Assembly: GCA_964416595.1 (NCBI GenBank)
Contig: CAYQES010000006.1
Span: 44,414-108,413, forward strand
Source of the DNA: an uncultured Bdellovibrionales bacterium
Lineage (GTDB): Bacteria > Bdellovibrionota > UBA1018 > CAIPTA01
Reading direction: 5' to 3'
DNA: 64,000 nucleotides
Below, piece by piece: positions 3,927 to 17,092 of this stretch. A program made the position numbers and the translations under genes. The notes beneath the pieces were generated by a model that worked only from the letters and a program-made list of their open reading frames with translations, did not search any database and had not been told where the DNA came from. The stretch's first letter is position 1, and each line of letters starts with the position of its first letter.

Positions 3927-5945
3927 TTAAGGCACAAGTCCCCAGAGGGAGGCTAGCTCTTTTTCGCCAGTGGCCATGGCCAGGGCACGCACTAGTTGTT
4001 GTGTGTATGGACCAATAAAATCTGTTTGTTGAAAAGCGCCAAGGGTGGCACTTGTTTCGGAAGAGCTGATTAGTTGGCCCTGCCCCGGCCTTAGGCGAAA
4101 GTCGTAGGATTCCGGCGCTACAAATTTTGGTTCCGTGCGCACAAGTTCAGGCACCGTGAGCGCGCGCCCTTGGGCTTGGATTTTGGAGCGCCAGGTGACA
4201 TTGCGCCCAATATTGGCAACGGGCATGGTGCTGGAAACGAGTATTGCATAGGGGCATTCGTAAAATATATTTTCATCCAGGCGCAGACGTGTGCCAGCGC
4301 CAGAAACTTTTACACCGGCGCTCGTGCGGATAAAAGAATTGTGGCTCACGCGCACATTTCCACTGAGAGAAGAAACACTAATCGCTTCTTTGTTTTCGAA
4401 AAATAAATTTCGTTTAGCTTCTAGATGGCAAGCGCGGTCCACGGAAACGGCTGTGGGCCAATCCCCCACAAAAGCATTATTTTCTAATACGATATCCGAT
4501 TTATCGCAGGAAAAACCCCGGGAGATACCGCGGGCAAAGGCATTGCCTTGGATTTTAACAGCGGAAGATTCGTGGGCCCAAACTCCTACACCGCCCTTGG
4601 CTTCGATCACATTGCCCAAGAGAGTAATGTTTTGGGTTTTGCTTAAGATGATGGTGGGTGCTTTTAGTTTTTGCAAAGTGGCAGGCACTAGCCGAAAACC
4701 CGATACCATGGAGTTGCGGATACCCTGAAATAAAAGCAAGGGTTTCTCTGGATCCGTGCCAATGAGCACGGTGCGGTCTGGCCCGGAGCCTGAAAGAGAA
4801 ATATTGGCTGGTAAAATGATCGGCTTAGATTCTCGATAAATGCCCGGCATTACTTTAATCACTACTTTAGTGCTCTCTTTTGGCGCCACGGCCTTATCTT
4901 TGGCGGGGGTGTAACGGGCCGGATCCGCTTTGGGAGCCACGCCCTTTTTGATTGCGTCCAAAGCTAGGGTAATGGACTGAAAGGCGTTAGGGTTTTTAGG
5001 ATCCACTAATACGCCCCGACCCAAGATCACGCCAATCTGAATCGGATCTAAAGGAGTGGTGCGCTGGGCTTTTTGCGCAAGTTTTTGCAAAGTGGAAGCC
5101 AGCACTCCGCGGCCTTTGGGCAAGAGCATGCCCATGAGTTCCCCTTGGGTGTTGATGATCGCCGTGCCCGCTTGGGTTTCGCTTAGATCTGTGCTGGAAA
5201 GGGAGAGCAGGCCCGTTTCCGAATTGGCTGCGGCTACCTGCCCCCGTTGGATCTGGGGCTCGATTTTGCCATCGGGGCCATCGGCAAAAGAAAAAGTAAA
5301 CACATCTACTTGTGGACGTTCATCCTGCATGGGCACATAGGGTAGGGGCGCGGGGTTTGCTTCCGGAGCCAAGAGCACGAGATTCTTTTCTTCGTCGATC
5401 AACGCAATTTTAGCGCTATAGGTGTTGCCAGTGTGGTGGGTGATTTCAATGCGATCGGCCCATTGCTGTTCGTTGCCCAACACGAGAGAAAGCGCCGTGG
5501 CGATGTAGGGAGCATTGCGACCCACGCCCACTCCCATAGCCCGGGCCAATTCATTGCCTGCGAGATCCCGCGCAATCACTCGCACCACGGAATGCTTGTA
5601 ACGATCCAAAAACATTTTAGTGATGTTCACTTCTTTTCGAGAGTTGCGGTATTGGCCAAGGGAGGGATTGGTTAGATCCGTGTTCGTGGGCGCAGGAATG
5701 GTATCGGGCGTGGGTAGTTGGCCAATATTCGTGGGGGCTTGAGTGCCGGAAGCTGGGGGAGCGTTGGTGGGATTAGTAAGCCGTTGTTGCACAGCGGGGC
5801 TTGATAGGGCAGAGCTCGGCACATAGGTGCCAGCGCCTTGGTTCACGGGCGGATCTGCGGCGATGGCAGTTTGGATTGCAAAAAGGCTAAGGCTTAAGGC
5901 CCACACTGGTATGGAAAAAAGAAAAGCCCATCGGAAATTTCCCAT
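3927..5945 (-). CDS. Secreted multidomain protein: signal peptide, Pro/Thr-rich linker, trypsin-like (S1C/HtrA-like fold) domain and a C-terminal right-handed parallel beta-helix repeat domain
   Basis: The N-terminal signal peptide is MGNFRWAFLFSIPVWALSLSLFAIQTAIA. A low-complexity P/T-rich stretch follows. The trypsin-2-like segment is VVRVIARDLAGNELARAMGVGVG...GTAIINTQGELMGML. The PbH1-like repeats include GNVIEAKGGVGVWAHESSAVKIQGNAFA and NNAFVGDWPTAVSVD. Confidence 0.55.
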   Translation of the reverse strand: MGNFRWAFLFSIPVWALSLSLFAIQTAIAADPPVNQGAGTYVPSSALSSPAVQQRLTNPTNAPPASGTQAPTNIGQLPTPDTIPAPTNTDLTNPSLGQYRNSRKEVNITKMFLDRYKHSVVRVIARDLAGNELARAMGVGVGRNAPYIATALSLVLGNEQQWADRIEITHHTGNTYSAKIALIDEEKNLVLLAPEANPAPLPYVPMQDERPQVDVFTFSFADGPDGKIEPQIQRGQVAAANSETGLLSLSSTDLSETQAGTAIINTQGELMGMLLPKGRGVLASTLQKLAQKAQRTTPLDPIQIGVILGRGVLVDPKNPNAFQSITLALDAIKKGVAPKADPARYTPAKDKAVAPKESTKVVIKVMPGIYRESKPIILPANISLSGSGPDRTVLIGTDPEKPLLLFQGIRNSMVSGFRLVPATLQKLKAPTIILSKTQNITLLGNVIEAKGGVGVWAHESSAVKIQGNAFARGISRGFSCDKSDIVLENNAFVGDWPTAVSVDRACHLEAKRNLFFENKEAISVSSLSGNVRVSHNSFIRTSAGVKVSGAGTRLRLDENIFYECPYAILVSSTMPVANIGRNVTWRSKIQAQGRALTVPELVRTEPKFVAPESYDFRLRPGQGQLISSSETSATLGAFQQTDFIGPYTQQLVRALAMATGEKELASLWGLVP

Positions 5946-5986
5946 GGGCTAATGGTAACAAAGATTGGGGGTTTTCACCCCCTTTC

Positions 5987-7141
<1,155 letters not shown>

Positions 7142-7200
7142 TTCTTACTCCTTCTAATTTATCCGATATTTATATTTGTCGGCTCGTTCTTATACGTTGA

Positions 7201-7218
7201 TGTACCCATTATGTACCC
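7201..7218. promoter_or_regulatory. Direct repeat TGTACCC-N4-TGTACCC (GTAC-N7-GTAC) 60-75 nt upstream of the recA start; a candidate SOS/LexA-type operator
   Basis: The repeat GTACccattatGTAC at 7202-7216 was read directly. Its architecture resembles direct-repeat LexA boxes such as GTTC-N7-GTTC. Confidence 0.3.
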
Positions 7219-7289
7219 CTTCCTGGGATAATGCTACATTTTTCGTACAGTCACTTTACCGTAAAACACGTTTGCGTGAAAACGGAAAA

Positions 7290-8576
7290 CTAAGCACGCA
7301 GCGCGTCTTTCAAAAGGCTAAGAGCAAGATGCGTGGCAATCACGCGATTCTGATCTCGGCTACCTTTCCCACTTAAAATCACCTGGTGGAGGATTTTCGA
7401 ACCCGCCTTGTTCGAAAGCGCTACATAAATAGTGCCCACGGGTTTTTGGGCGCTGCCCCCACCGGGGCCAGAAATGCCTGACAAAGCTAGCGCGTAATCA
7501 GCGCCGGTTTGTTGTCGTAAAGATTCAGCCATTTGTCGCACAGTGGCTTCGGAAACGGCGCCTTCCGTTTGCAGTATGGTTTTGGGCACAGCCAAAAATT
7601 TTTCCTTCCAAGCATTATGATAAGTCACAAGGCTGCCCAAAAAATATTCCGAAGAGCCGGGAAGATCCGTGAACATCTTGGCCAAGAGACCGCCTGTACA
7701 ACTTTCGGCTAAAGCTAGGGTAGATTTTTTTTCTTTGAGTAGTCCCGCCACCACTTGCACCAAATCTTCCCGTTGGTGTGTGAATGCAATATCTCCTAGA
7801 GCAGCGTCTATTTTTTGGCTGACAGTTTTTATTTCCTCTTGGCTAGGGGATTTTTGCCCCGGGATCTTCCAGCTTTCTAAAGTGAGATCGATGCAAGGGA
7901 AGGTGATATGCACACCAAAATAAAAAGTTTGCGGATATTTTTTTTCAAGCGGCTCAATAAGGCTCGCGACCCGTTGGTACACTTCGCTCTCACCCCGGCC
8001 AAAGGTGCGCCAGAATTTTCGTTCTTGTAATTTTTTACGAGCCATTTTTTTGGCGAGGCCTGGTAAAATTTCTTCGGCGAAGATCGGCCGGCATTCATTG
8101 GGCGGGCCAGGCAGAAAATAAAAAAGAGATTTCCCTTTTTTTACGGCAAGCCCGGGAGCTGTGCCCGTGGGATTGGATAAAATTTTACTGCCCTTTAGCA
8201 CAAGCGCGAGGCGCTGGCGCTGCTCTGTAAGAGGCAAACCGCGGGCAAGGTAGCGGGAGCGCACATGTTCGAGGGAGGCTTTTGTGAATTGGAGCGGGAG
8301 TTTTAAGGCTTTAGCGGCGCTCGCCAGAGTGCGATCATCATTGGTGGGCCCGAGGCCCCCCGTAACAATCGTGACCGGAAAAGCGGCGGCCGCTTTTAGG
8401 GCGCCCCCAATATCTTCCGTGCGATCAGAAACGCAGCGCACCTCGCTTACACTCAAGCCATGTTCTCTTAATTTTTCTGCGAACCAAGTGGCGTTGGTGT
8501 TGGGAGTTCGGCCATCCAGCAATTCATCACCGATGGATAGGAGAAAAATGCCGAGGTTAGAGGGAGTTTTTTTCAT
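7290..8576 (-). CDS. cinA: Competence/damage-inducible protein CinA (MoCF-biosynthesis-like N-domain plus CinA C-terminal nicotinamide-nucleotide amidase domain)
   Basis: The product is 428 aa. The N-terminus MKKTPSNLGIFLLSIGDELLDGRTPNTNATWFAEKL is typical of CinA. The gene lies immediately upstream of recA, as in the classic cinA-recA operon. Confidence 0.85.
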   Translation of the reverse strand: MKKTPSNLGIFLLSIGDELLDGRTPNTNATWFAEKLREHGLSVSEVRCVSDRTEDIGGALKAAAAFPVTIVTGGLGPTNDDRTLASAAKALKLPLQFTKASLEHVRSRYLARGLPLTEQRQRLALVLKGSKILSNPTGTAPGLAVKKGKSLFYFLPGPPNECRPIFAEEILPGLAKKMARKKLQERKFWRTFGRGESEVYQRVASLIEPLEKKYPQTFYFGVHITFPCIDLTLESWKIPGQKSPSQEEIKTVSQKIDAALGDIAFTHQREDLVQVVAGLLKEKKSTLALAESCTGGLLAKMFTDLPGSSEYFLGSLVTYHNAWKEKFLAVPKTILQTEGAVSEATVRQMAESLRQQTGADYALALSGISGPGGGSAQKPVGTIYVALSNKAGSKILHQVILSGKGSRDQNRVIATHLALSLLKDALRA

Positions 8577-8577
8577 C

Positions 8578-9075
8578 TTACGCTAGGGAAAAACCAAAGA
8601 AGGAGTTGGCGAGCTGCAAGGTTACGTAGAGCAGGAGGGTGGCAAAAATGGCGGCGGCCATATCATCTAACATGGCACCTAAGCCCCCCTTCACTTTGGC
8701 ATCGATCCAACGGATGGGACCGGGTTTAAAAATGTCGAAGAAACGAAAAAACACAAAAGCTAGTGCATAGTGCCACCACAAATGTTGGGTAATGCTCGTG
8801 GTGAAAAGAATGCCCGCCACTTCATCGATAACTATGGTTTGATGATCCTCTGTGCCTGTTTTTTGGATTACTTTTTTTGCGGCCCAAACGCCCAAGAGAA
8901 AAATTATGATCGCGGTGCCCCAAGCAAATTCAGCAGGAAGTTTCCACATCCACCACGCTAGCGGTAGGGCTGCAAGGGAGCCAAAAGTGCCAGGAGCTTT
9001 GGGCAGTTTTCCAACGTAGAAAAAAGTGGCGATGCATTGGGCAATGGAAAAGTTCATGGCTCGAGATTCCAGCAT
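8578..9075 (-). CDS. pgpA: Phosphatidylglycerophosphatase A
   Basis: The PgpA signature segments are GSLAALPLAW..., IDEVAGI... and FDIFKPGPIRWIDAKVKGGLGAMLDDMAAAI. The stop lies 2 nt before the cinA start. The start may instead be the internal Met at 9057. Confidence 0.8.
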   Translation of the reverse strand: MLESRAMNFSIAQCIATFFYVGKLPKAPGTFGSLAALPLAWWMWKLPAEFAWGTAIIIFLLGVWAAKKVIQKTGTEDHQTIVIDEVAGILFTTSITQHLWWHYALAFVFFRFFDIFKPGPIRWIDAKVKGGLGAMLDDMAAAIFATLLLYVTLQLANSFFGFSLA

Positions 9076-9170
9076 AAAACCGCGCCGGATGCGAGCGGAT
9101 AAATCTACATAAAATGCACCTTTACGTCCCCTTGATCATCCATTAGGGTGAAGGGCAGAGGGGTAATGGT

Positions 9171-10430
9171 TTGGATTCACAGCAGCACGAAATATTAGAA
9201 TTCGTGGATTCCCTGCGCTTGGGGCGCGAGGTCATGAACCTCATGCTAAAAGGCCGCAGCGTGATCGATTCCCACCACGGTTTGCCTTTGCACACAGTGG
9301 AAGCGGCCGATGAGTTTTTGTTGCGCTATGGTTTTAATTTAGAAAATCCCGTGGAGCGGGCTGAAGTGTTGGGCAACTACCAAGAGGCGTTACGATTCAT
9401 TCGTAAATATTTTCTAAAACCCGAAAATCCTGATGGCGCCGATCTTGAGATTCCTAAAAATTTTCAGGAACTAGTGGATGTTCGTCTGCTCTTTATTTGG
9501 GCCGCCGATAAAGCTTTGGGCCAAGCTGTGCGGGCCCGCTGGGCGTGTGCCGTGCTGCGGGTGATGCATGCCATTTCCCACTTAGATAAAGATTTGCGCC
9601 ACGATTTTTTCCCGGACATCCAAAAACAAATCTTCGATCGTTTTTATAAAGAAATTCATTCAGAGAATGAGGGCTTGTATTTGGGCGATCCGAAATCTGC
9701 CGCTTCTGTGCCCCTGGAAAAATTTCTCACCAAGCCCCGCAAAACCCGGGATTCCGTGATTTTGAAATTGCTCCATAAAAAAGAAACCCTGGCCGAAGAT
9801 GTGTTCGATCAGATCGGCGTGCGTTTTGTGACCAAAAACCGCGTGGATGTTGTGAAGGTGCTAAAATATTTACGGGATCGTTACATTGTTATGTCGATGA
9901 ATTTACGCCCCTCCCGCTCCCGCAATAATTTGGTGGATCCGCTTCTCTACCGCCGTACTTGGCGGGAAATCCGGCAAGCGGTGCAAAAGGGCGAAGTAAT
10001 GGACCGCGCGCGCGTGATCAGTGCTTTAGAGAAGGCTGTGGGTAGGGGTTACTCGGAATCGCAAAAAGAAATTGGCGAACACAATCCTTTTTCCAGCCGG
10101 GAATTTCTCTCGATCCAATTTACTTGCCGACAATTAATCAAATACCGCAGCCCTGCCTACGAAGAATTAAAAGCGTTGCGGGCCCATTTAAAAAATACGG
10201 GTGACGAAGAGACGAAGAAAATATTAGAGCGCCTGGATTTCGGACAGCTCGCCAAAGAGCAGCGCTTCTTTTATCCCTTCGAGGTGCAAATCTTGGATCG
10301 GGAAAATTTCGAAGAGGCTGAGAGCGGCCGTGCCTCCCATGCTTCTTATAAAGCCGCGCAGACGCGTATGGCGATGAAGCGGGTGCTTGGGCAATTGCTG
10401 CTGGATTATAGCGAAGAAGCGAAGGGGTAG
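9171..10430 (+). CDS. Hypothetical 419-aa protein with a central RelA/SpoT-like (alarmone-synthetase-type nucleotidyltransferase) domain
   Basis: RKTRDSVILKLLHK resembles the R-x-K-x3-S-x3-K ATP-binding motif. DQIGVRFVTKNRVDVVKVLKYLRDRYIV follows, resembling the D-x-x-G-x-R plus beta-strand motif of the RelA_SpoT synthetase domain. The flanking about 180-aa N-terminal and about 150-aa C-terminal regions are unassigned. Confidence 0.45.
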   Translation: MDSQQHEILEFVDSLRLGREVMNLMLKGRSVIDSHHGLPLHTVEAADEFLLRYGFNLENPVERAEVLGNYQEALRFIRKYFLKPENPDGADLEIPKNFQELVDVRLLFIWAADKALGQAVRARWACAVLRVMHAISHLDKDLRHDFFPDIQKQIFDRFYKEIHSENEGLYLGDPKSAASVPLEKFLTKPRKTRDSVILKLLHKKETLAEDVFDQIGVRFVTKNRVDVVKVLKYLRDRYIVMSMNLRPSRSRNNLVDPLLYRRTWREIRQAVQKGEVMDRARVISALEKAVGRGYSESQKEIGEHNPFSSREFLSIQFTCRQLIKYRSPAYEELKALRAHLKNTGDEETKKILERLDFGQLAKEQRFFYPFEVQILDRENFEEAESGRASHASYKAAQTRMAMKRVLGQLLLDYSEEAKG

Positions 10431-10648
10431 GGCCGCCGCGGGGTGGCGCCGAAGAATTGTAAGACGAAGATCAACCCCTAACACTCCCACCTGCCTCCGC
10501 ATAAAACTCCATTACTTTGCACGCGCTAAGTAAATAAATTGTACCACTGCCTGGGGCGCGCAAGGTGAGCATGTCACTCAAGAACCCGCAGCCCGGCGCA
10601 AAAAATTCTCTTCCTACTAAAACACGGCTTTCCTGCTAGAATCCTTCC

Positions 10649-12118
10649 ATGCATTTTTTCTTCCTGGTCCTTGCAGTACTAGCCACAGCCGCAGTCCCCA
10701 CCGTTACCACTAACTCGGCGAAAGAACCCTCCACCTTCCGCGTGCGGCTTGTGGAAGATCTCGGCACCCTCGATTGGAACTACGGAGAGATCAATCCGGA
10801 AATTTCTTATCAGCTAATGGAAGGCCTGTTCCGCACCAATGCCAAAGGCCAGGCGGTGCCGGCGGCGGCTAGAAGCTTTCGTTGGAATAAGGAAAAAACG
10901 GAACTTGTGGTGCAGCTCGATCCTGAGAGTCGCTGGAGCGATGGTTCGCCCCTCTGTGCCCAGCAGTTTGTGGATTCTTGGCAACGCTTAAAAGATAAAA
11001 CCTTCGCTTCTCCCTATGCGCACTATGCCCATACTTTAAAAAGTTTTGAGGCCAAGAGTTGCCGGGAGTTGCGGGTAAAATTTGAGCGGCCTAGCCCCGA
11101 AGCCACGGCGCTCTTTGCCCATTATGTGTTTTTTCCGATTCGCCTCGATCAGTTGAAAAAATCCCCGCAAATTTTTAAAGAGGGCGTGGGTTTGCTCGTG
11201 AATGGTCCTTATCAAGTGCAAGAGTGGAAAACAAACCAGAATCTCATGCTTCTGCGCAACCCTAGGTATGGGCGGAAAAAACCTGTGGTGGAACGGCTCG
11301 AGTTTTATTTTATTCCCGATGAAAATACCGCGCAGGTGATGTTTGAGCAAAAACGCATCGATTGGCTAAAAGATGTGCCACAGCTACTACGCACCAAAAC
11401 CATGGAGAAGAGCGCTGCCTTTCAAAGTTTTCCGAATCTTACGACATTTTATTTTGGCTTGAATGTGGGCAAATCAGAATTATTGCAAGACGAAGAAATC
11501 CGTTTTGCTTTGAGTGAAAGCTTGGACCGAAAAGAAATTTCCAAGATCCTCGGGAAAGAATACAAGGGCACAAAAGACTGGCTGTCGCCGGTGATTTTTC
11601 CCGCTCTCACGCCAGCCGCCACAGCCAATAAAAAGAAATTAGAAAGCGCCCGCAAAAAACTTGAGGCCGCCAAAGCCGCCGGTAAAATGGATTTGCTCTT
11701 AAGGGTGTATAGCAAAGCCGCCCACCGGTCCCTGGCCGAATGGGCCCAGGGGCAATGGGAGAAAAAACTTGGCGTGCGCATTCCCATAGAAGTGATCGAG
11801 GCCAAGGTGTACTGGCGGGAAATCTACACCGATCCGCCACCGATTTTCTTGAGCGGCGTAACGGCGCCTTATAGCCACCCGCGGGCGTTTCTCCAAGAAT
11901 TTCTTTCCACGAGTACTGCTAACTGGACAGGCTGGAGTTCTCCTGAGTACGACAAAGCTGTGAATGAAGATTTATTCCAAGAGGCCGAAGATATTTTGCA
12001 AAAGAGCGGCGTGATTGTGCCGCTCTACACGAGAGACACAGTGGCCCTAATCAATCCCCGCTGGAAAGGGTTTTACATTAATCCTTTAGGGCAGATTTTT
12101 CTGGGCGACTTACGCTAG
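10649..12118 (+). CDS. Solute-binding protein, ABC transporter family 5 (oligopeptide/dipeptide-binding-like), secreted
   Basis: The signal peptide is MHFFFLVLAVLATAAVPTVT. The family-5 SBP core is RVRLVEDLGTLDWNYGEI...YQLMEGLFR. No permease or ATPase genes are adjacent. Confidence 0.7.
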   Translation: MHFFFLVLAVLATAAVPTVTTNSAKEPSTFRVRLVEDLGTLDWNYGEINPEISYQLMEGLFRTNAKGQAVPAAARSFRWNKEKTELVVQLDPESRWSDGSPLCAQQFVDSWQRLKDKTFASPYAHYAHTLKSFEAKSCRELRVKFERPSPEATALFAHYVFFPIRLDQLKKSPQIFKEGVGLLVNGPYQVQEWKTNQNLMLLRNPRYGRKKPVVERLEFYFIPDENTAQVMFEQKRIDWLKDVPQLLRTKTMEKSAAFQSFPNLTTFYFGLNVGKSELLQDEEIRFALSESLDRKEISKILGKEYKGTKDWLSPVIFPALTPAATANKKKLESARKKLEAAKAAGKMDLLLRVYSKAAHRSLAEWAQGQWEKKLGVRIPIEVIEAKVYWREIYTDPPPIFLSGVTAPYSHPRAFLQEFLSTSTANWTGWSSPEYDKAVNEDLFQEAEDILQKSGVIVPLYTRDTVALINPRWKGFYINPLGQIFLGDLR

Positions 12119-13013
12119 TTTTGCGTTTGGCGGCTTTGGGCTTATTTTCTACCTTCTCCAAAAAAGAACGGATGATTTCTGTCACCAGATCCGCCTTTTC
12201 CATCTGCGGGCAGTGGGAGCCCTCGGGGATCACATGCAATTCTGCATTGGGTATAAGTTCCGCAAAAATTTTCTGGTTCTTTGAAGGCGTGATCAAATCG
12301 TTTTCGCCAGCGATCACGAGCGTGGGCGCTTTCACTTCCTGGAGCCAGTGGGTGCAGTCGGTTTTCATAAAATCGCTGATAAGGTTTAAAAAAATATCAA
12401 GATCTACAGTGCTCGTGAGGCGAAGGTATTCGTTGATATCTTCCCGTTTGGCGTACTTCGGATTGAAGCCTGCGAGGGCTACGAATTCCCGGTTGATGGG
12501 ATTGGTGCCTTGGTTCGCCCAGACTTTTTGTAAAATATCGGGAATAAAGCCGTGGGCTTTCTGCAAGAGGGGGAAAAGCACTTGCAGAAAATTGTGATGG
12601 AACATGGTTTCGAACGGATCTTTTGGCGTGCCGTTGGCTAATACGAGGGCCTGCACCCGTTCTGGCGCGAGGCGATAGAAATCCAAAATGATGTTCACGC
12701 CGAGGGAGTGGCCCAGCAAAGGAGCTGATTTAATTTCCAATTCGTCGAACAGCTCCAAAAGATCCCGGGCACAGCTTTCGATTGTCATGGTGCGGGCGTC
12801 TTCCGGGCGGGCGCTTTGGCCGTGGCCCCGGTAGTCCATGAAATACACCCGGTGGGTTTTGGCAAAGGCCTCCATTTGGTATTTCCACTGGAGCTTGGAA
12901 CACACAAGGCCATAGCAAAAAACTAAGGGCGGGGCATTTTTCGGGCCTTCGATAGAATAAAAAAGGCGCACTCCATCGCGGGTGCGGAAATAGCCCTGTT
13001 CTTCGCGGCTCAT
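12078..13013 (-). CDS. Alpha/beta-hydrolase fold protein
   Basis: The nucleophile elbow is GHSLG, with the HGxxxS-like context FCYGLVCSKLQW...MDYRGHGQS. The C-terminal tail is lysine-rich. The 3' end overlaps the convergent SBP gene by about 40 nt. Confidence 0.75.
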   Translation of the reverse strand: MSREEQGYFRTRDGVRLFYSIEGPKNAPPLVFCYGLVCSKLQWKYQMEAFAKTHRVYFMDYRGHGQSARPEDARTMTIESCARDLLELFDELEIKSAPLLGHSLGVNIILDFYRLAPERVQALVLANGTPKDPFETMFHHNFLQVLFPLLQKAHGFIPDILQKVWANQGTNPINREFVALAGFNPKYAKREDINEYLRLTSTVDLDIFLNLISDFMKTDCTHWLQEVKAPTLVIAGENDLITPSKNQKIFAELIPNAELHVIPEGSHCPQMEKADLVTEIIRSFLEKVENKPKAAKRKTSVSRPEKSALKD

Positions 13014-13507
13014 GGGGATCCTTTTTTGGGCAAGGGCGGAGGTTTGGGTGGGCCACCGGCGCCAGGTAGGGGCGGAGGTTTAGGCATGCCCGCACTGCTG
13101 GATTTCTCTAAATGCTCCAGAGCGTCTAAAATTGCTTTTTCCCGGCTACCTTCCACAAAACGGCTCGCTGCTTGGGGGTGTTGGAAGGGTTCAGGGGGAG
13201 TGGGTGGGTTTAGGTCCAGGCGGGAAAAGCTTACAGTGGTGCGTCCCATGCTGATGCTATCCCGTTCCTTCAAGGGCGCAGGATTTTCAAAAGGGCGGCC
13301 ATTCAAGCGGATTTCAATGTCTTCATCCAAATTTTCCAGGAAAAATCCTTGGCCTTGCGCAAAAACCCGGATTTGCAAGGGTGCCAGGGCCGGATCATCG
13401 ATCAGCATATCACCTTCCGTTTGGCCGAACGTGAGTTGGTTGCCCAGATGTTGGTAGGTAGACTGTTGGCTTTTGTCCGGGGCAACGATGATTTTAAACT
13501 CGATCAT
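13010..13507 (-). CDS. FHA-domain protein with a proline-rich C-terminal tail
   Basis: The FHA core is LTFGQTEGDMLIDDPALAPLQIRVFAQGQGFFLENLDEDIEIRLNGRPF. The C-terminal PKPPPLP motif occurs twice. Confidence 0.7.
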   Translation of the reverse strand: MIEFKIIVAPDKSQQSTYQHLGNQLTFGQTEGDMLIDDPALAPLQIRVFAQGQGFFLENLDEDIEIRLNGRPFENPAPLKERDSISMGRTTVSFSRLDLNPPTPPEPFQHPQAASRFVEGSREKAILDALEHLEKSSSAGMPKPPPLPGAGGPPKPPPLPKKGSP

Positions 13508-13537
13508 TTCTTCTTAGTATAACGGGAAAAATTTCCT

Positions 13538-16500
13538 TTGCACCCCCTCACCTTTCATCTAGATTGGAAACCCATGAAACAGGTAGAGAACCGAAAAGAA
13601 CGGACTACTTTGCTCCGAAATCGCTTGAAAGAGCGTATTTTGGTGTTAGACGGCGCCACGGGTACCGCTCTGCAGGAAGAAAATCTTACCGCCAAGGATT
13701 TTGGCGGCGAGGAATTCGAGGGTTGCAACGAGAATTTGGTTCTTACGCGCCCCGATGTGGTGAAGCGCATCCACGAAAAATATTTAAAAGCCGGCGCTGA
13801 TATCGTGGAAACCAACACTTTCGGCGGCACACCGATGGTGCTCGGCGAATATGGGCTTTCCGAGAAGGCTTACGAGATCAACAAGCGAGCCTGCGAAATT
13901 GCGCGGGAAGCTTGTAGGGAATTTTCCACACCTGACTGGCCCCGCTTCGTGGCCGCGTCCATTGGCCCTACCACAAAAGCAATCTCCGTAACTGGCGGAA
14001 TCACGTTTGATGAATTGGCCGAACAATTTTACCAGCAAGTCAAAGGTCTCTATGACGGTGGCGCCGATTACTTCTTAATCGAAACTTGCAACGATACTTC
14101 CAACGTGAAAGCTTGCTTGCACGCCATTGATCGCTTGCATAGTGAAGTGGCTGATCCTTTGCCTGTGGCTGTTTCCGGCACGATTGAACCTATGGGAACC
14201 ATGTTGGGTGGCCAGGGCGTGGACGCTCTTCTGACTTCCCTCATGCATCGGGATTTACTCTATGTGGGCTTGAATTGCGCCACGGGCCCTGAGTTCATGA
14301 CAGATCACATTCGCACGTTGGCTGGTATGTCGCCTTTCCCCGTGGCTTGCGTGCCCAATGCGGGTTTGCCGGACGAAAACGGCCAGTACTTAGAAACTCC
14401 AGAGCTTGTGGGCAAAGTGATTTCCCGATTTATCGAAAAAGGTTGGCTAAATGTGCTCGGTGGCTGTTGCGGTACCCATGGTGGTCACGTGCAACATTTG
14501 CGGGAAATTGCTGACCGCGCTAGTCCTCGAGTGGTTGCCGCGCCTCGGGCATCTCGTCTTTCAGGGATTGAGTATTTAGAAGTCACTGACGAAATGCGGC
14601 CATTACTCGTGGGCGAACGCACCAACGTGATCGGCTCCAAAAAATTCCGGGAACTGATCCAGGCCGGCAAATGGGAAGAAGCTGCGGAAGTGGGCCGCGC
14701 CCAAGTGAAAAAAGGCGCCCATATCGTGGATGTTTGCCTCTCGAACCCCGATCGCAACGAACAAGAAGATTTACAAAAATTCATGCCCGAGCTTCTAAAA
14801 AAAGTGCGGGTGCCCGTGATGATCGATTCCACGGATGCCTCCGTGATCGAAGACGCTTTAAAACTCGTGCAAGGCAAAAGCATCATCAATTCCGTGAATT
14901 TGGAAGACGGTGAAGAGCGCTTTGCCCACGTTCTACCTTTGGCGCGCAACTATGGCGCCGCCGTGGTGGTGGGCTGCATCGACGACGATCCAGAGCAGGG
15001 CATGGGCGTAACCCGTGAGAGAAAATTAGCCATTGCCGAGCGCGAATACAATTTACTCACGAAAAAATACGGCATTCCGCCGGAAGATATTTACTGGGAC
15101 GCCCTCGTTTTCCCCTGCGGCACGGGCGATGCGCAATACCGCGGCTCCGCCGTGGAAACCATCGAGGGCGTGCGGCTGTTGAAAGAAAAATTTCCTGGCA
15201 CAAAAACGGTGCTCGGAATTTCGAACGTCTCCTTTGGTTTACCCGCTGTGGGCCGGGAAGTACTGAATGCGGTTTTCCTCTACCACTGCGTGAAGGCGGG
15301 CTTGGATTGCGCAATCGTGAATTCTGAAAAAATTCCGCGCTTTGGTTCTTTGAGTGCTGAAGAAGTGAAGGTGTGTGAGGATCTGTTGTGGAACCGGGGC
15401 GAAGATCCCGTGGCCACGTTCGCCGCTTTTTTCCGGGCCGCACGGCCCAAGGCCAAGGAAGTGCGCCAAGAACTTCCTTTGGATGAGCGCCTGGCCCAGT
15501 ACATCGTGGAAGGCACGAAAGAGGGTTTGTTTGCGGATCTCGATTTAAAACGAAAAGAGATGAAGCCACTCGATATCATCAACGGCCCACTCATGCGGGG
15601 CATGGATACGGTGGGGCGCCTCTTTAATAAAAACGAAATGATTGTGGCCGAAGTGTTACAAAGCGCCGAGGCCATGAAGGCCGCGGTAACTTACCTCGAA
15701 CCCTATATGGAAAAAACGGACACGGCTCTGCGCGGAACCGTGGTGCTTGCCACCGTGAAGGGCGATGTGCACGATATCGGCAAAAATTTGGTAGATATCA
15801 TTTTCTCCAACAATGGTTTCCGCGTGGTGAACCTCGGCATCAAAATCCCTTCGGAGCAATTGATCCACGCCGTGCGGGAACATAAGCCAGATATTTTGGG
15901 GCTCTCAGGATTGCTCGTGAAGAGCGCTCAGCAAATGGAACTTTCCGCCGGTGATTTGCAGCAGGCGGGTTTAAATGTGCCAATTCTCGTGGGGGGCGCC
16001 GCGCTCACACAAAATTTTACGGATAAACGCATTGCCAAAGCTTACGGTGCTGGTCTCGTGGCTTACGCCCGGGATGCCATGGGGGGCCTCGAACTCGCCA
16101 AACAGATCGTGGACAAAGAACTGCGCCCGGGACTAGAAGACACTTTGCGGCAGCGCCAGAGCGAATTGCAACGGCAAAGTGCGGAAGGGGCATCGGCGCC
16201 GGCGGTGACCGTGAAAGAGCGTTCGAAACTTGTGCCTGTTTTGGGCGAATTACCCCGGGCTCCCGATTTTGAACGCCATGTGATCCGCGGTCAGTCTCTA
16301 GATCTCGTGTGGAAGTATATGAACAACCTTGTGCTCTTCTACCGGCACTTAGGAATTCCCGGAGAAGCCGTGAAGCTCTGGCAAAAAGGGGATCGCAGTG
16401 CTTTAGCTTCGCACCCGAGTGGCGCCAAGATGCTGGAGTTCGCGCAAGTGGTAGAAGATTTGAAGGGTGAAATTAAACGTAATGGCCTCGTGGCCGTGGA

Positions 16501-17092
16501 AGCCGTTTACCAATTCTTTCCCGCCGCGAGCGAAGGCAATGCTTTGCACCTTTACGGAGCAGAAAGTTTTCCAAAACCCAGAGCGGTGTTTGAATTTCCC
16601 CGCCAGGCAAAGGTAGATGGTTTATGTTTATCAGATTTTGCTCAGCCTTTAGCGGCTTCGGCTAAAGGACGTTTAGATCAGGTAGCACTCTTCTGCGTGA
16701 CGGCCGGTAAAGGCGTGCGAGCCCGCACGGAAGAGTTAAAAAAGCGGGGCGAATATTTGAAAGCCCATGCGCTTGCGGCCCTCGCCATCGAAACGGCGGA
16801 AGCCTATGCTGAGTTACTGCATGCACAGATCCGCTCCCAGTGGGGCTTTCCTGACTCTCCTGATCTCACCATGATGGATCGTTTCCAGGCCAAATACCGG
16901 GGTTGTCGTTATTCTTTTGGCTATCCCGCTTGCCCCCGTCTCGACGACCAGGCGATTTTGTGGCAGCTCCTGGATCCCACGGAAATCGGCGTGCAACTCA
17001 CCGACGGTTTCATGATGGATCCTGAAGCTTCCGTTTCCGCCTTGGTATTTCATCATCCAGAGGCCAAGTATTTTGGCGTGGGGGAAGCATGA
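13538..17092 (+). CDS. metH: Cobalamin-dependent methionine synthase
   Basis: The product is 1184 aa. It has a homocysteine-binding barrel, a pterin-binding domain, the B12-binding motif DVHDIGKNLV and a C-terminal AdoMet-activation domain. The true start may be the ATG at 13574. Confidence 0.95.
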   Translation: MHPLTFHLDWKPMKQVENRKERTTLLRNRLKERILVLDGATGTALQEENLTAKDFGGEEFEGCNENLVLTRPDVVKRIHEKYLKAGADIVETNTFGGTPMVLGEYGLSEKAYEINKRACEIAREACREFSTPDWPRFVAASIGPTTKAISVTGGITFDELAEQFYQQVKGLYDGGADYFLIETCNDTSNVKACLHAIDRLHSEVADPLPVAVSGTIEPMGTMLGGQGVDALLTSLMHRDLLYVGLNCATGPEFMTDHIRTLAGMSPFPVACVPNAGLPDENGQYLETPELVGKVISRFIEKGWLNVLGGCCGTHGGHVQHLREIADRASPRVVAAPRASRLSGIEYLEVTDEMRPLLVGERTNVIGSKKFRELIQAGKWEEAAEVGRAQVKKGAHIVDVCLSNPDRNEQEDLQKFMPELLKKVRVPVMIDSTDASVIEDALKLVQGKSIINSVNLEDGEERFAHVLPLARNYGAAVVVGCIDDDPEQGMGVTRERKLAIAEREYNLLTKKYGIPPEDIYWDALVFPCGTGDAQYRGSAVETIEGVRLLKEKFPGTKTVLGISNVSFGLPAVGREVLNAVFLYHCVKAGLDCAIVNSEKIPRFGSLSAEEVKVCEDLLWNRGEDPVATFAAFFRAARPKAKEVRQELPLDERLAQYIVEGTKEGLFADLDLKRKEMKPLDIINGPLMRGMDTVGRLFNKNEMIVAEVLQSAEAMKAAVTYLEPYMEKTDTALRGTVVLATVKGDVHDIGKNLVDIIFSNNGFRVVNLGIKIPSEQLIHAVREHKPDILGLSGLLVKSAQQMELSAGDLQQAGLNVPILVGGAALTQNFTDKRIAKAYGAGLVAYARDAMGGLELAKQIVDKELRPGLEDTLRQRQSELQRQSAEGASAPAVTVKERSKLVPVLGELPRAPDFERHVIRGQSLDLVWKYMNNLVLFYRHLGIPGEAVKLWQKGDRSALASHPSGAKMLEFAQVVEDLKGEIKRNGLVAVEAVYQFFPAASEGNALHLYGAESFPKPRAVFEFPRQAKVDGLCLSDFAQPLAASAKGRLDQVALFCVTAGKGVRARTEELKKRGEYLKAHALAALAIETAEAYAELLHAQIRSQWGFPDSPDLTMMDRFQAKYRGCRYSFGYPACPRLDDQAILWQLLDPTEIGVQLTDGFMMDPEASVSALVFHHPEAKYFGVGEA

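Follow-up and report, generated by a model that had tools for sequence, protein, structure and literature searches.

A long, divergent RelA/SpoT-type synthetase-domain protein of the TIGR04562/TIGR04552 family encoded at a conserved locus of Bdellovibrionota

The DNA analyzed here comprises 64,000 nucleotides (the window) from an uncultured Bdellovibrionales bacterium (assembly GCA_964416595.1, contig CAYQES010000006.1, positions 44,414 to 108,413 of the forward strand). At 9171..10430 on the forward strand of the window lies a gene that starts with TTG, ends with a stop codon at 10428-10430, and codes for a protein of 419 aa related to the RelA/SpoT homologues (RSH). This RSH-like protein is a member of the already named, unstudied TIGR04562/TIGR04552 branch of the RSH superfamily, and we think, with a probability of about 0.7, that it is a cytoplasmic and catalytically competent RSH-type pyrophosphokinase, that is, a long divergent small alarmone synthetase (SAS) of this family rather than a toxin. 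The open reading frame (ORF) is present exactly as described in an initial annotation made from the letters of the window, and its translation holds the two peptides quoted there, including KPRKTRDSVILKLLHKKETLAEDVFDQIGVRFVTKNRVDVVKVLKYLRDRYIV. The NCBI protein P0001 is identical, but it was modelled as 408 aa from the GTG at 9204 and is thus 11 residues shorter. The form of 419 aa, as read from the sequence, is plausible because a GAGGGG stretch lies 7 nt before the TTG, and because residues 8-11 of this form align with homologues. The features of the gene and of the protein are as follows, with residues numbered in the 419-aa form.

9158..9163, forward strand: Shine-Dalgarno-like GAGGGG, 7 nt 5' of the TTG at 9171, read from the sequence
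9171..9725, forward strand: N-terminal region, residues 1-185, family-specific, mostly helical and then with short beta-hairpins
9732..9779, forward strand: putative ATP-phosphate-binding motif K188-P-R-K191-T-R193-D-S195-V-I-L-K199-L-L-H-K203, from a profile alignment
9807..9824, forward strand: putative catalytic strand D213-Q-I-G216-V-R218, D213 corresponding to RelSeq D264 and R218 to R269 by alignment
9900..9926, forward strand: conserved basic loop N244-L-R-P-S-R249-S-R251-N252, with the family form N244-x-[KR]-P-S-R249-S-R251-N252
9933..10082, forward strand: insertion 1, residues 255-304, a variable hairpin of helices that canonical synthetase domains do not have
10083..10142, forward strand: N305-P…F312-L-S-I-Q316-F-T318-C-R320-Q-L-I-K324, a predicted long beta-strand, from the model and motif inspection
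10149..10256, forward strand: insertion 2, residues 327-362, a pair of helices that separates core strands three and four
10266..10298, forward strand: F366-F-Y-P369-F-E371-V-Q373-I-L-D376, with E371 corresponding to RelSeq E323, Q373 to Q325 (EVQIRT motif), and P369 to P321
10317..10361, forward strand: A383-E-S-G386-R-A-S-H390-A-S-Y393-K394-A-A-Q397, the equivalent of the AE.G.AAHW.YK helix of RSH enzymes

The gene is real, far beyond chance, since a search of 5.8 billion proteins returned 1,403 homologues at E<=1e-3, 547 clusters were obtained at 50% identity, and relatives were found in at least 536 species genomes. The Pfam model RelA_SpoT (PF04607) matches residues 191-243 with 30.8 bits (gathering cut-off 27; E 3.8e-7) and is the sole Pfam match in the protein. 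The same model is matched by every one of 30 close relatives and by 58 of the 66 distant ones, and in some of the latter the match spans model positions 3-111 of 113. Two NCBIfam models, TIGR04562 (376.9 bits, cut-off 140) and TIGR04552 (354.1 bits, cut-off 125), are matched full-length over residues 20-406; both are named just 'TIGR04552 family protein', and homologues in NCBI and JGI bear the names of these two models. The model for long RSH enzymes, TIGR00691 spoT_relA, gave 14 bits against a cut-off of 499.2, and none of the HD, TGS, and ACT domains sought with Pfam and NCBIfam was found in the 419 residues. When the single protein was searched with phmmer against the PDB sequences no match was obtained, and the structures of Rel and SAS enzymes were reached only by profiles: that of 66 representatives, 26-46% identical to the query, matched Bacillus subtilis YwaC (E 4.3e-5), RelSeq (3e-4), and Rel Mtb (3.5e-4). 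Members of the family, present in Bdellovibrionota, Myxococcota, and some other phyla, share the length (about 410-430 aa) and the conserved motifs of the query; nothing material sets the query apart from them, and only the downstream neighbours vary by lineage. One TIGR04552-family member is MXAN_4858 of Myxococcus xanthus.

The alignments place the synthetase motifs residue by residue. On the K..S..K helix, which also takes in K203, the counterparts of K191, S195, and K199 are K243, S247, and K251 in RelSeq and the RVK..S..K motif in YwaC; H390, Y393, and K394 fall on the AAH..YK segment. In all 66 representatives K191, K199, D213, G216, N252, N305, E371, Q373, and Y393 are invariant, and K188, S195, K203, R218, R249, T318, P369, D376, G386, H390, K394, Q397, and R404 are conserved in 90% or more; in a second set, of 125 sequences, D213 and E371 are likewise invariant (125 of 125). 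RelSeq binds Mg2+ through D264 and E323, and in RelSeq, RelQ, and RelP the lysines hold the phosphates of ATP. Given these known roles and the conservation of the corresponding set here, all the synthetase catalytic residues appear by alignment to be conserved and the active site to be intact. When the family profile was compared by hhalign with the single sequence of E. coli RelA, the probability was 6% and the alignment was confined to the EVQ…YK segment. Across the several alignments made with E. coli RelA, the two anchor segments seen with RelSeq and YwaC are found again.

The predicted structure agrees with this assignment. The AlphaFold model from the single sequence had a predicted local distance difference test score (pLDDT) of 36.5 and was discarded; the model built with 125 homologues (AF2) reached a pLDDT of 84.6 and a predicted template modelling score (pTM) of 0.75, and the order of its strands and helices is that of an RSH synthetase. 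In a Foldseek search of the PDB, the 50 best matches were, without exception, synthetase domains of RelP (6FGX/6EX0), RelQ (5DEC/5DED), or Rel and RelA (their N-terminal halves), with probabilities of up to 1.00, template modelling (TM) scores of about 0.5 relative to the target, and about 12% identity to RelP and RelQ. Among the viral structures of BFVD the best match was again a RelA/SpoT protein. The initial annotation had proposed a RelA/SpoT-type core devoid of HD, TGS, and ACT domains, in which the two quoted peptides would be the ATP-binding and the G-x-R/beta-strand elements, and had called for the PF04607 search, a structure prediction, and a look at the catalytic Asp and Glu; the Pfam score, the failure of TIGR00691, the correspondence of the peptides with RelSeq K243/S247/K251 and D264/R269 and with YwaC, the AF2 fold, and the invariance of D213 and E371 all bear it out.

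The basic loop at residues 244-252 is tentatively regarded as the counterpart of the acceptor-side RxKD/ExDD motif of Rel and RelA, based on a manual alignment with E. coli RelA. The predicted strand at residues 305-324 would be the counterpart of the RelSeq acceptor loop Y308-x-S-x-H312, as suggested by motif inspection and by the order of strands in the model. Position 312 is Tyr in 58, Phe in seven, and Trp in one of the 66 representatives, position 314 is Ser or Ala, and the two insertions flank this putative acceptor strand. As for the N-terminal region, no Pfam or PDB sequence match to a known domain was obtained for residues 1-185, although S30, D33, Y53, G54, W124, C126, H133, and H137 are kept throughout the family. 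We considered whether the region could be a degenerate HD domain; the sole trace was a non-significant alignment of -2.5 bits to the 140-160 helix of RelA, and the idea was set aside for want of support. C126, H133, and H137 (window 9546-9581) occupy positions i, i+7, and i+11 of a predicted helix spanning residues 116-139, a spacing that puts them on one face of the helix, and this face may hold a metal or a ligand.

By analogy with RelSeq, RelQ, and RelP, we propose, as the most likely reading, an active 3'-pyrophosphokinase that depends on Mg2+ and ATP and acts on a purine nucleotide. K188, K191, R193, S195, K199, and K203 would hold the triphosphate of ATP, and D213 and E371 would bind Mg2+. 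The aromatic residue at position 312, where the third core strand begins (Phe here, Tyr in most relatives), would stack on the base of the acceptor, and the beta,gamma-pyrophosphate of ATP would be transferred to the ribose 3'-OH of the acceptor. The same analogy makes a purine nucleotide the most probable acceptor; GDP or GTP, giving (p)ppGpp, is a first guess. The N-terminal domain and the two insertions probably regulate or extend the acceptor side. The analysis itself establishes the family, the class of fold, the conserved catalytic residues, and the setting in the genome, while the activity, the acceptor, and what the extra domains do are inferred.

Several observations weigh against this interpretation. 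The Pfam match in the protein spans only the first half of the RelA_SpoT domain, and the E-values of the Foldseek matches are modest (best 3.3e-3, none <=1e-3). The Arg of the canonical R-x-K motif (R241 in RelSeq) is P189 here and is variable in the wider family, while K188 and R193, near the replaced position, are conserved. The His of the acceptor loop Y-x-S-x-H is Gln at position 316 in 57 of the 66 representatives (His in seven). With both of these residues replaced, the acceptor site is seen as altered, and it is for this reason that the preference for guanine is worded as a guess. In addition, the third core strand gave no scored alignment in any of three attempts (hmmsearch --max, a forced hmmalign, and a profile stripped of the insertions), which did align the K..S..K/D-x-x-G-x-R and EVQ segments; since the strand was never aligned by profile methods, we infer the mapping to Y308 and H312 as stated above. 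About 270 of the 419 residues, namely the N-terminal domain and the two insertions, are without an assigned role, and a literature search found no characterization or biochemistry for any TIGR04562/TIGR04552 member.

Among the enzymes already studied, RelQ/SAS1 (YjbM) and RelP/SAS2 (YwaC) of Firmicutes (5DEC, 5DED, 6EX0, 6FGX, 6FGK) are the best structural matches, YwaC being also the best match of profile to PDB. Like the query, they carry a synthetase domain only, with the K..S..K helix, the D-x-x-G-x-R strand, the E-x-Q strand, and the H..YK helix. However, they have about 210 aa against the 419 of the query, which has the extra N-terminal domain of 185 aa and the two helical insertions, and in which His is exchanged for Gln and R-x-K for K-x-x-K. 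The architecture of the query does not fit that of a canonical SAS, a single domain of about 200-250 aa that forms homotetramers. The synthetase motifs of the long enzymes (RelSeq 1VJ7, Rel Mtb 5XNX, E. coli RelA 5IQR) align with the query residue by residue, but the query has no HD hydrolase, TGS, ACT, or ribosome-binding domains. The toxic SAS enzymes (toxSAS: FaRel, FaRel2, PhRel, PhRel2, CapRel) and the secreted effector Tas1 belong to the same RSH synthetase superfamily and are stand-alone proteins too (PMC7229694); none of them was among the 50 best structural matches, and the query differs from them in its conserved position in the core genome and in having neither a bi- or tricistronic toxin-antitoxin architecture nor a match to a defence model. 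In the 2011 census of RSH proteins by Atkinson, B. bacteriovorus has only Rel, and M. xanthus has an unclassified protein with a synthetase domain only, YP_633016.1 (PMC3153485). Our guess is that this protein is MXAN_4858. Evidently, generic RSH models detect the TIGR04562/TIGR04552 clade only marginally.

The gene lies among the following neighbours in the window.

5987-7141: recA, behind cinA
7290-8576: cinA, behind the pgpA-like gene
8578..9075, reverse strand: pgpA-like gene, divergent upstream
10649..12118, forward strand: OppA-like SBP_bac_5 gene, coding for a solute-binding protein, 218 nt downstream of the RSH-like gene
12078..13013, reverse strand: alpha/beta-hydrolase gene, convergent, followed by an FHA-domain gene and metH

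A survey of the context covered 86 related loci, of which 67 had enough upstream sequence and 65 were used for the downstream counts. In 58 of 67 loci pgpA is divergent and no more than 1.5 kb away on the upstream side; on the downstream side, 54 of 65 have the convergent alpha/beta-hydrolase gene. Immediately 3' of the RSH-like gene there is, in 48 of 65 loci, a gene for a DAO-like, flavoprotein-like product of about 400 aa (with a median spacing of 11 nt from match to match, and an overlap in some cases), and 53 of the 65 have on the 3' side a gene for an Fe-S protein of about 650 aa with 4Fe-4S dicluster and 2Fe-2S/BFD-like domains. The RSH-like gene appears to head a three-gene operon with the flavoprotein-like and Fe-S genes in most Bdellovibrionota; examples of the arrangement are seen at loci L003 (9232-12404) and L004 (9301-12460). 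The SBP_bac_5 gene occupies the position of the operon partners only in the close clade of the query (63-77% identity), and no copy of the redox-type partner genes was found at the locus or elsewhere in the 64-kb window. Searches of the partner proteins against Pfam, NCBIfam, and PDB gave generic FAD and ferredoxin matches only. The synteny is common to Bdellovibrionia, Bacteriovoracia, and Oligoflexia, and the RSH-like gene belongs to the core genome of Bdellovibrionota, in which it is inherited vertically. The initial annotation had placed the gene alone between pgpA and the solute-binding-protein gene, and so it lies; what could not be seen from one stretch of letters is that the locus is conserved across the phylum.

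A syntenic block made up of 5987-9075 and 12078-17092 is shared with relatives of 47-64% identity (L001, L002, L008), with alaS…recA-cinA-pgpA on one side and the alpha/beta-hydrolase, an FHA-domain protein whose tail is rich in proline, metH, and recG on the other. MAG contigs labelled candidate division WWE3, Lysobacteraceae, Flavobacteriaceae, and Methylotenera (L018, L074, L085, P0148) carry the recA-pgpA-RSH-like locus of Bdellovibrionota type, and these labels are probably errors of binning or labelling.

We then asked which other explanations could account for the protein. One is that the fold and the chemistry are the same and the acceptor is not a guanine nucleotide, the product being (p)ppApp, a pyrophosphorylated 3' end of RNA or tRNA, or a modified form of another metabolite that contains ribose; in most of the phylum the enzyme could then work together with the flavoprotein-like and Fe-S proteins in one pathway or signalling unit. 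The exchange of His for Gln at 316, the R-S-R-N loop, and the two insertions beside the acceptor strand would be in line with this, as would the frequency with which the DAO-like and Fe-S genes follow. Furthermore, known RSH enzymes use ATP/ADP or tRNA as acceptors (PMC7229694; 10.1101/2021.04.30.441581). Nevertheless, nothing points to any other acceptor in particular, the aromatic residue thought to stack on the base is kept here just as it is in RSH enzymes that accept nucleotides, and the partner proteins match generic ferredoxin and FAD domains only. The lineage of the query, moreover, lacks the redox partners at the locus and in the 64 kb, yet the enzyme is strongly conserved. We hold a non-guanine acceptor to be unlikely.

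Another explanation, raised in the initial annotation, is that of a toxSAS, in which the protein would be the toxic component of a toxin-antitoxin or anti-phage module with an unrecognized antitoxin. A stand-alone protein with a synthetase domain only is what the toxSAS families have (PMC7229694), and the protein is moderately basic (pI 9.0). Loss of function is also tolerated in Bdellovibrio sp. NC01: a 1-bp deletion that shifts the frame of the orthologue DOE51_RS08710 rose to a frequency above 75% in one evolved line (PMC9888234), so that the orthologue is dispensable in laboratory co-culture. However, the related loci have no conserved small bicistronic partner, pgpA being divergent and the downstream gene varying by clade, and neither intergenic region contains a plausible small ORF; in this respect the remark that no antitoxin is evident was correct. 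A PADLOC search gave no match, the structures that match best are those of housekeeping SAS and Rel enzymes, and the locus is syntenic throughout the phylum, neither patchy nor mobile, with a GC content in the gene region (0.47-0.52) that is the same as that of the flanks. In all likelihood the RSH-like protein does not act as a toxin within a toxin-antitoxin or defence module, and the suggestion of a toxSAS, left unsupported by the synteny and by the absence of a defence match or a mobile context, is very improbable.

The sole match in a 'phage' belongs to this question. The INPHARED record 'Microcystis phage MaAM05' (MW495066.1, 273,876 bp) contains a full-length homologue of 30% identity, at 5872-7089 of the extracted locus L087 (117543-130622). 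Its neighbours are bacterial housekeeping genes, namely glyS, gatD, mtgA, and secD/secF. With glyS, secDF, and mtgA around it, the homologue was rejected as evidence of a phage origin, and the record seems to be bacterial DNA that was deposited under a phage name.

Finally, a catalytically dead pseudo-synthetase, acting as a nucleotide-binding regulator or scaffold in the manner of the inactive hydrolase domain of RelA, would suit the long insertions and the extra domain, the replaced Arg of R-x-K and His of Y-x-S-x-H, and the weak detection by generic RSH models together with the census that lists only Rel in B. bacteriovorus (PMC3153485), but we give it hardly any credence, because D213, E371, K191, K199, Q373, Y393, and G216, metal and phosphate ligands among them, are invariant in representatives as divergent as 26-46% identity to the query, a pattern that one would expect of an active site rather than of a relic.

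The preferred interpretation of the protein as an active pyrophosphokinase has consequences for its name and for the biology of its hosts. It should be annotated as a TIGR04552/TIGR04562-family RelA/SpoT-domain protein, putative nucleotide pyrophosphokinase, and neither as a toxin nor as a hypothetical protein. RSH enzymes set the growth state of bacteria, and new branches have repeatedly been found to make other products, (p)ppApp and pyrophosphorylated tRNA among them. The present branch is found in the at least 536 species genomes mentioned above, largely of predatory Bdellovibrionota, and redox-type genes are linked to it in most lineages. We speculate, with little confidence for now, that it is a phylum-wide RSH-type pyrophosphokinase of the predatory Bdellovibrionota and Myxococcota with an acceptor or a regulatory input of its own; if this were true, it would amount to a nucleotide messenger or modification pathway apart from the classical stringent response. 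For example, the Cys/His face formed by C126, H133, and H137 and, in the majority of lineages, the flavoprotein-like and Fe-S partners of the operon could sense the redox state. The product and the trigger of the enzyme would show how these predators signal starvation or the entry into the prey beyond Rel. In M. xanthus, MXAN_4858 adjoins the G1 gliding cluster, and in a developmental fitness screen it behaved like the gliding genes (bioRxiv 10.64898/2026.08.28.747804).

Regarding other elements around the gene, an Rfam search of 8900-10800 at E<=1 revealed no riboswitch or other RNA, and a scan for promoters and terminators gave nothing exceeding the expectation from shuffled sequence. An antisense ORF of 92 aa (10224-10502, reverse strand) overlaps the 3' end of the gene; it is without support and probably spurious. 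With respect to the distribution of the family, the entry P0379 (cluster of P0232) led to a member that bears the label 'Candidatus Xenobium sp.' (Eremiobacterota) and to a second that is labelled 'Burkholderiales bacterium'; provided that the labels are correct, the family extends past Bdellovibrionota and Myxococcota.

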